Notes: a model not told the origin generated them from the sequence alone. 12,776 nt of DNA from a virus (IMGVR_UViG_2690316243_000002); one strand, 5' to 3'. Counted from the first letter of the stretch, positions 6,064-6,374 are shown. Program-made: numbers and translations.

Positions 6064-6138
6064 TGGAGCGGGCAGCGGGAATCGAACCCGCATCATCAGC
6101 TTGGAAGGCTGAGGTAATAGCCATTATACGATGCCCGC
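6064..6138 (-). tRNA. tRNA-Gly (anticodon UCC)
   Basis: Reverse complement reads GCGGGCATCGTATAATGGCTATTACCTCAGCCTTCCAAGCTGATGATGCGGGTTCGATTCCCGCTGCCCGCTCCA: anticodon loop CTTCCAA, acceptor GCGGGCA/TGCCCGC, CCA end; matches host glyT as recalled. Confidence 0.9.
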
Positions 6139-6141
6139 ATA

Positions 6142-6217
6142 TGGTGCCGACTACCGGAATCGAACTGGTGACCTACTGATTACAAGTCAGTTGCTCTGCC
6201 TGCTGAGCTAAGTCGGC
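6142..6217 (-). tRNA. tRNA-Thr (anticodon UGU)
   Basis: Reverse complement reads GCCGACTTAGCTCAGCAGGCAGAGCAACTGACTTGTAATCAGTAGGTCACCAGTTCGATTCCGGTAGTCGGCACCA: anticodon loop CTTGTAA, acceptor GCCGACT/AGTCGGC; thrU-like. Confidence 0.85.
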
Positions 6218-6219
6218 GC

Positions 6220-6296
6220 TGGCCCACCACCGAGGACTCGAACCTCGCACCGTCAACTTAGAAGGTTGATGCTCTATCCGGATGAGCTAGTGGTGG
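6220..6296 (-). tRNA. tRNA-Arg (anticodon UCU)
   Basis: Reverse complement reads CCACCACTAGCTCATCCGGATAGAGCATCAACCTTCTAAGTTGACGGTGCGAGGTTCGAGTCCTCGGTGGTGGGCCA: anticodon stem TCAAC/GTTGA, loop CTTCTAA, T-loop TTCGAGT; unusual C1-G72 acceptor pair. Confidence 0.8.
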
Positions 6297-6297
6297 T

Positions 6298-6374
6298 TGG
6301 TGGCCCTTGCTGGACTTGAACCAGCGACCTGGCGATTATGAGTCGCTCGCTCTGACCAACTGAGCTAAAGGGCC
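6298..6374 (-). tRNA. tRNA-Ile2 (anticodon CAU, probable lysidine tRNA; Met not excluded)
   Basis: Reverse complement reads GGCCCTTTAGCTCAGTTGGTCAGAGCGAGCGACTCATAATCGCCAGGTCGCTGGTTCAAGTCCAGCAAGGGCCACCA: loop CTCATAA; the acceptor stem (C4, C5) and T-arm resemble host ileX rather than elongator tRNA-Met. Confidence 0.75.

Follow-up and report, generated by a model that had tools for sequence, protein, structure and literature searches.

The stretch of DNA analysed here (the window) is 12,776 bp long and represents the entire draft contig CXCY01000141.1 of the draft assembly GCA_001258795.1. Its phage genes are transcribed on the minus strand, and the features in Table 1 are listed in transcription order. 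In the window ARAGORN calls eight minus-strand tRNA genes, which form two identical sets of four at 6374-6064 and 9013-8703; in each set the genes are labelled Met/CAT, Arg/TCT, Thr/TGT and Gly/TCC. In annotated relatives a single array of this kind lies between Q (or Q plus the ORF6N gene) and the holin gene, and the array in the window likewise sits between a Q gene with its terminator and the lysis genes, co-oriented with late transcription. A terminator lies upstream of both array copies, that of copy 2 being the ORF6N terminator at 9106-9127. The 98-aa ORF that separates array copy 1 from the holin gene has no Pfam or PHROG match.

Table 1 Features of the window in order of transcription. 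Comparison loci are given by their L numbers; square-bracket tokens in the text stand for sequences.
Feature	Position	Strand	Basis or remarks
DnaB-type helicase, then RusA	upstream of Q	-	
Antiterminator Q (PF06530), prophage locus 1	10247..10654	-	upstream of isrK/C4, the ORF6N gene and array copy 2
412-bp module, copy 2	8702..9113	-	blastn self-match, ARAGORN
Array copy 2, after the ORF6N terminator	tRNAs 8703-9013	-	followed by a 181-nt flank
IS600, right end to an internal position	7383..8520	+	99.2% to the IS600 of L001
N, from the IS600 interior to the ybcO start	7382		join that sets the arrays 2.6 kb apart
ybcO	before the Q-like gene	-	directly after the N at 7382
Q-like antiterminator (DUF1133)	6564..7238	-	Pfam PF06576 3.8e-107, PHROG 753; prophage locus 2 in closed genomes
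Intrinsic-terminator hairpin plus T-run between Q-like gene and array	6466..6490	-	sequence reading; equivalent hairpin in relatives
412-bp module, copy 1: terminator 3' arm plus T-run, promoter, four tRNAs	6063..6474	-	ends 1 nt beyond tRNA-Gly
Candidate sigma-70 promoter of the array: TTGCAG, 17-nt spacer, TATTAT	6384..6412	-	consensus scan and conservation
tRNA-Ile2 type, anticodon CAU, reads AUA	6298..6374	-	ARAGORN; Rfam 70.5 bits; ortholog of Stx-phage ileZ
tRNA-Arg, UCU, reads AGA, weakly AGG	6220..6296	-	ARAGORN, Rfam; phage argN-lineage body with C1-G72, G73, A20
tRNA-Thr, UGU, reads ACA	6142..6217	-	ARAGORN, Rfam; near copy of host thrU
tRNA-Gly, UCC, reads GGA/GGG	6064..6138	-	ARAGORN, Rfam; identical to host glyT
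98-aa ORF between array copy 1 and holin	5590-5886	-	gene called at the same place in closed genomes (L037, L044)
NN, from the copy-1 downstream flank to the last 5 nt of IS600 (CCTCA) and the GTG target-site duplication	5388..5389		
Holin/lysozyme/Rz	5484-4115	-	then HNH, small and large terminase subunits, portal

The array members are intact tRNA genes and not pseudo-tRNAs, scoring 56-70 bits with the Rfam tRNA model against a gathering score of 29. CCA is encoded in all four, and the spacers between the genes measure only 1-3 nt. With the K-12 genes as identity references, tRNA-Gly is identical to glyT (75/75) and tRNA-Thr matches thrU at 74 of 76 positions, the two differences being T>C changes that give C16 and C20 in the D loop (the Thr slot of relatives is 76/76 to thrU), which agrees with the suggestion in the preliminary description that these two genes look nearly host-identical. 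The gene that ARAGORN labels Met matches K-12 ileX at 69/77 positions versus 54/78 for metT/metU, and the ileZ gene of Stx phages at 74/77. It has the anticodon loop of ileX and an acceptor stem (GGCCCTT/AAGGGCC) with the pairs C4-G69 and C5-G68, which serve as recognition elements for TilS; PGAP labels an identical sequence as tRNA-Ile. Judged by these features it is an Ile2-type tRNA (ileX/ileY-like), presumably with lysidine at C34, and not an elongator tRNA-Met. The tRNA-Arg matches K-12 argU at 58/79 positions and Stx-phage argN at 64/77, and is characterised by C1-G72, G73, A20, U33 and the anticodon loop CUUCUAA. Its C1-G72 acceptor pair had been noted as unusual, and the pair is indeed present, but it is no oddity of the window copy, since every slot-2 homologue compared has it. 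Those homologues also show compensatory acceptor-stem changes, for example from A3-U70 to G3-C70. The pair is a trait of the argN lineage, neither damage nor a peculiarity of this array. The ARAGORN calls and the K-12 comparison therefore confirm the anticodons that had first been read from the sequence, namely CAU in an ileX-like body, UCU, UGU and UCC.

These comparisons support a mixed origin of the set, as had been surmised: the Ile2 gene (90% identical to the host gene) and the Arg gene (orthologous to argN) belong to an old phage ileZ/argN lineage, and the Thr and Gly genes are recent host copies. In K-12, thrU and glyT sit in one operon, thrU-tyrU-glyT-thrT, and it is to these two members that the phage genes show the identities given above. 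In contrast to the host operon, the phage array is without tyrU and the 116-nt spacer, with Thr and Gly just 3 nt apart. A capture of thrU and glyT together with host flanks was considered and rejected; sequence comparison found no host flanking homology retained around the phage Thr and Gly copies, which leaves the capture route impossible to reconstruct.

Relatives of the array vary in several ways. Orthologous tRNA bodies carry different anticodons. In slot 2 the window has UCU and Stx argN has UCG, many E. coli prophages have UUU, and CE0026a has UGU; the UUU and UGU forms combine with an unusual C33. These variants concern slot 2 of the comparison loci L007, L008, L010, L015 and L017 and slot 3 of L016; in strain 720632 the thrU-like slot 3 has the anticodon UUU. 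Such differences among orthologous slots look like shifts by point mutation inside the phage array. Array members have decayed in some relatives. In L001, a gene called as tRNA-Val (TAC) at 7757-7828 is a copy of glyT that bears C35>A and A38>G, lacks 1 nt of the acceptor stem and has its CCA spoiled, and slot 3 of L001, L009 and L018 holds Thr copies with TCATC for TCAGT, by which two anticodon-stem pairs are lost. A homologous array also occurs outside Escherichia/Shigella, in Yokenella regensburgei ATCC 49455 (L026 3227-3533), where Ile2, Thr, Gly and the promoter hexamers are kept and slot 2 is a 73-nt tRNA-Ser (TGA) by ARAGORN.

The -10 hexamer TATTAT of the candidate promoter ends 9 nt before the 5' end of the first tRNA, and the G+C-rich stretch that comes next could function like the discriminator of a stable-RNA promoter. 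It had been proposed that each array copy has a candidate promoter of its own and might be expressed from the lysogen. A consensus scan flags TTTGCA-18-TATTAT at 6413-6384, with such matches being no more frequent than expected by chance in the region. We also aligned 13 distinct upstream sequences, from Shigella-type, E. coli, Stx2a-phage and Yokenella loci and with Stx-phage ileZ included, in register from the tRNA start. In this alignment TTGCAx, a 17-nt spacer and TATTAT are kept (TTGATT in one sequence), while the spacer itself and all sequence farther upstream diverge. For an EHEC strain carrying Stx prophages, dRNA-seq has identified a primary transcription start site that drives the homologous phage tRNAs (PMC7547250). 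The conservation of the promoter and the start site of the Stx homologue make it plausible that the array's own candidate promoter is active in the lysogen, and the proposal is retained on these two grounds, not on the consensus match, which on its own is not above chance. The scan's best match, an internal promoter TCGGCA-16-TATAAT (6150-6123 and 8789-8762), was dismissed because its TATAAT is part of the tRNA-Gly sequence itself, being the D-arm of the glyT-identical tRNA.

The array had been interpreted as a codon-compensation set for A-ending codons that are rare in the host. To assess codon usage we combined 3,036 codons from the phage genes of the window with 10,520 from the FDAARGOS_944 prophage, which carries a 100%-identical array, giving 13,556 phage codons; the baseline is K-12, and not the actual host strain of the window, with 40 core genes (14,718 codons) and 26 ribosomal-protein and rpoA genes (3,775 codons). 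Within-family odds ratios for phage versus K-12 core genes are 8.5 for AGG, 8.1 for AGA, 4.0 for AUA, 3.0 for CGG, 2.65 for ACA and 2.16 for GGA. AGA, AUA, ACA and GGA therefore rank 2, 3, 5 and 6 of 59 codons for phage enrichment, and four named codons would all land among the top six by chance with a probability of 3.3e-5. Together the four codons reach 4.8 per 1000 in K-12 ribosomal-protein genes and 16.0 in core genes, compared with 29 in the late genes of the window, 43 in the late genes of FDAARGOS_944, 53 in early genes and 60 in the ipaH/dedA cargo of the prophage with the identical array (AUA 21.9, AGA 15.4 per 1000). In the ORF6N gene, 11 of 187 codons belong to the set. The late genes of the window itself show a weaker enrichment; there only AGA and ACA are nominally significant, and neither AUA (odds ratio 1.87, p=0.14) nor GGA (1.52, p=0.16) reaches significance.

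The argU, thrU and glyT genes are single-copy in K-12, and ileX/ileY amount to two copies. The array tRNAs thus double up low-copy host isoacceptors for AUA, AGA, ACA and GGA, and with the cognate codons enriched in the phage genes, codon compensation is most likely the function of the array. The description of these codons as rare in the host holds for AUA and AGA, the only two of the four that are truly rare; ACA and GGA are just the 10th and 14th rarest of the 61 sense codons in K-12. Nor are the tRNAs restricted to A-ending codons, as by wobble rules the UCU, UGU and UCC anticodons also read G-ending ones. A comparable bias is known from phage SfI, in which ACA makes up 17.3% versus 7.1% in the host, and the analysis of that phage came to the same conclusion of codon compensation for ACA and Thr-UGU (PMC3636060).

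The non-random correspondence between the anticodons and the most enriched codons also bears on the idea that the tRNAs are neutral passengers, hitch-hiking in a recombination-prone intergenic region with no selective benefit. Such a scenario would account for the mosaic boundaries, which fall exactly at the module edges, and for the decay of members in some relatives. However, it does not predict the match to the codons, nor the compensatory acceptor-stem changes in slot 2, which point to purifying selection on structure, nor the promoter hexamers that are kept as their surroundings diverge, and we consider it highly improbable. What the decayed members in several relatives (the altered Gly annotated as 'Val-TAC' and the Thr copies whose anticodon stem is disrupted) do disfavour is strong universal selection for the array.

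Phage tRNAs have also been proposed to act in counter-defence, taking the place of host tRNAs lost during infection to cleavage by anticodon nucleases or by other defence systems directed at tRNA (PMC10264068). Evasion of such nucleases would be recognisable from an anticodon loop unlike that of the host isoacceptor (PMC10264068). In the window each of the four 7-nt anticodon loops matches its host counterpart exactly; Gly is glyT throughout, and Thr differs in the D loop only. Nucleases would therefore cut the array tRNAs just as they do the host species, which leaves only replenishment through gene dosage. The one observation that would suit counter-defence comes from relatives, where the unusual C33 of the UUU and UGU forms of slot 2 could be a nuclease-evasion change. 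Overall, a counter-defence role for this array seems very unlikely to us. A role in tRNA-dependent lysogeny or att-site repair (PMC10865867) was set aside; a related prophage with an identical array is integrated between ybhA and pgl and not in a tRNA gene.

An important question is whether the array is really present twice within one prophage, as the sequence would have it. A blastn self-match identifies a perfect repeat of 412 bp (100% identity, 6063-6474 = 8702-9113), the left edge of which, in copy 1, falls in the 3' arm of the terminator at 6466-6490. The resulting tandem layout is doubtful because the joins are Ns and closed genomes have one module per locus. Ns are present in the window at 4396, 5081-5108, 5388-5389 and 7382, the 28-N run at 5081-5108 lying inside the holin ORF (4967-5269), and the best-matching relative switches exactly at 7382 and at 5388-5389, as expected of scaffold joins. 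Both N-marked junctions are absent from 5,426 complete E. coli genomes, and the junction 30-mer has no match in the GTDB species representatives. In closed chromosomes that encode the same ORF6N protein, which include CP022455.1, CP032523.1, CP104423.1, CP019689.1 and CP044151.1, the ORF6N locus reads DnaB, RusA, Q, ORF6N, one array, 98-aa ORF, holin, lysis genes, terminase and portal. The window aligns to such a closed locus (L038) in two pieces, 12776->8702 to 4991-9065 (99.95%) and 6474->5390 to 8654-9738 (99.9%), and these overlap on the single 412-bp array. The second locus of CP022455.1 (L029), ~1.06 Mb away, is 100% identical both to window 7379->6063 (ybcO, Q-like gene, array) and to 9113->7383 (array, flank, IS600), with the two matches again overlapping on one array; where the window has its N at 7382, IS600 runs on normally in L029. 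The exact 412-mer is found once per locus in the closed genome, in two prophage loci, and relative to this genome the downstream flanks of the two window copies are swapped, the pairings in CP022455.1 being ORF6N-array-CGAGATTTGAG and Q-like-array-TCAGAGTCTTTC.

A perfect repeat of 412 bp is generally hard to phase with short reads. The tandem layout is best explained by mis-scaffolding through this repeat, in which locus 2 would have been looped into locus 1 with the N closing the loop. The inserted block is a circular permutation of locus 2, which would be the signature of a repeat-induced loop in the assembly graph. The alternative is a genuine tandem duplication that places two arrays 2.6 kb apart in the isolate, for example through recombination of an excised array-IS600-ybcO-Q segment at the array. 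This is the layout of the deposited sequence, and IS600-rich genomes do rearrange; however, the junction from the IS600 interior to ybcO is represented by an N and occurs in none of the finished genomes examined, the inserted block is permuted as described, and short reads would hardly phase the repeat, so we regard a true tandem as most improbable. With mis-scaffolding as the preferred explanation, the earlier statement that the array is carried twice needs to be divided. The 412-bp repeat is there in the sequence, and comparison with the closed genome indicates that this genome really does carry at least two copies of the module, in separate prophages; four arrays are present in S. flexneri SFBU1023. 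The tandem pair within one prophage does not stand, as the two copies are connected through N joins and not on one contiguous resolved molecule, and a double dose per prophage finds no support in the closed genomes, which give one module per prophage locus. More generally, tRNA gene dosage and prophage structure taken from short-read drafts of IS-rich genomes can mislead when a repeat such as this one is shared between loci.

The ends of IS600 can be followed across the window. On the right side, the inverted repeat TGAGGTGTACTGG begins at position 8520 and is adjoined by GTG at 8521-8523, and the last 5 nt of the left end (CCTCA) adjoin GTG at 5381-5383 (window 5381-5388). The uninterrupted site in L023 reads GGATAGAGTG followed by CTTTCC. 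GTG is the 3-bp target duplication that arose when IS600 inserted, in a simple event, between an array flank and a holin region. An IS600-bounded composite or nested insertion with GTG duplication was considered and rejected, since there are two separate loci and IS600 continues normally in L029. A truncated ybcO (85-aa ORF) was likewise discarded as a marker of the junction; intact loci are also called as an 85-aa ORF, so the truncation is not junction-specific.

The array is an already known kind of feature, and RefSeq genomes contain annotations of exactly this array. The ileZ-argN-argO cluster of Stx phages (e.g. Stx2a_F349, AP012530.1) occupies the same site, after Q and a terminator and before the late/lysis genes; the first two genes of the window array are orthologous to ileZ and argN, the second having the same C1-G72 body, and the -35 and -10 elements are conserved. 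The window array differs from this cluster in the slot-2 anticodon (UCU, not UCG) and has neither argO nor stx, with the host-derived Thr-UGU and Gly-UCC genes instead. Ile2-Lys(UUU)-Thr-Gly arrays of E. coli lambdoid phages and prophages (vB_EcoS-689R5, PhiR47_1, APEC O1 and others) have the same four slots and spacing, are ~94% identical and contain the same host-derived Thr and Gly genes, whereas their slot 2 has UUU, C33 and U73 in place of the conventional Arg-UCU with U33, A20 and G73 of the window. SfI (Asn-GUU, Thr-UGU), Sf6, ST64T, PS3 and P21 also carry tRNAs downstream of Q (PMC3636060); here the likeness is one of position and of the published codon-compensation reading, and the tRNA content differs. 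Literature searches for ileZ, argN and argO together, or for the four tRNA names with 'prophage', returned nothing specific to the window array, and a Stx-phage review and a phage-typing paper mention tRNAs just as integration sites. The array carries little weight as a discovery; that lambdoid phages have tRNA clusters downstream of Q, and that these are interpreted as codon compensation, is long established. Its practical yield lies in the quantitative match between the set and the most phage-enriched codons, and in a phylogenetically conserved promoter with a published start-site match that makes lysogen expression plausible.

Taken together, we consider it likely, with a probability of roughly 0.75, that the locus represents a prophage tRNA module of a known kind that compensates for codon usage and has its own promoter, and that its duplication is an artefact of the draft scaffold. 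The module consists, in order, of a terminator tail, a candidate sigma-70 promoter, tRNA-Ile2(CAU), tRNA-Arg(UCU), tRNA-Thr(UGU) and tRNA-Gly(UCC). In lambda-like prophages of Shigella/EIEC/E. coli it precedes the lysis cassette and follows Q or, in some, an insert that runs from Q to the antirepressor gene. Its own promoter would provide low-level transcription in the lysogen; upon induction, Q-modified RNA polymerase from the late promoter would read through the upstream terminator, and phage replication would raise the gene copy number. With the extra tRNA, phage genes and AT-rich cargo such as ipaH may then meet fewer decoding bottlenecks.

The benefit could also fall to the host. In a domesticated module, expression would be constitutive from the array's own promoter, and the module would be kept in decayed prophages where it helps to translate AT-rich virulence genes (ipaH, invasion-plasmid genes). 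Consistent with this, the module is intact and identical in the locus 2 remnant (L029), which has lost lysis and head genes; closed CP022455.1 has two copies and S. flexneri SFBU1023 the four arrays mentioned above; the ipaH/dedA cargo is rich in AUA and AGA; and the candidate promoter is independent of Q. On the other hand, some copies are decaying in relatives, and arrays of the same family occur in inducible phages of non-invasive E. coli. We view domestication as possible, though on balance unlikely; it is compatible with the phage-encoded codon-compensating module that we favour and not exclusive of it. A stronger version, for which our expectation is lower still, is that the 412-bp module is a self-contained, lysogen-expressed cassette that is retained in multiple copies as prophages decay, and that it acts as a host-level modulator of virulence and not as a phage accessory. 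If so, the four extra tRNAs should measurably raise the translation of ipaH and invasion-plasmid genes.

Two further observations concern the surroundings of the array. The FDAARGOS_944 prophage with the identical array encodes the epoxyqueuosine reductase QueH, a tRNA-modification enzyme (L013 14799-15464; also L018 2070-2735), so that tRNAs and a tRNA-modifying enzyme are found in one prophage, and its far end carries ipaHb, which encodes a T3SS effector. In the window, Q is followed on the minus strand by an RNA-rich stretch (9804-10242) that contains a promoter-like site at 10242-10213 and Rfam matches to an a1/b1 target (10219-10167), isrK (10206-10130, with a terminator at its end), C4 antisense RNA (10104-10021) and sRNA-Xcc1 (9887-9804), after which comes the ORF6N antirepressor gene. 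The isrK/C4/ORF6N stretch looks like a P1 immI-like (c4-ant) or Gifsy-1 isrK-like module placed in a lambdoid late leader.
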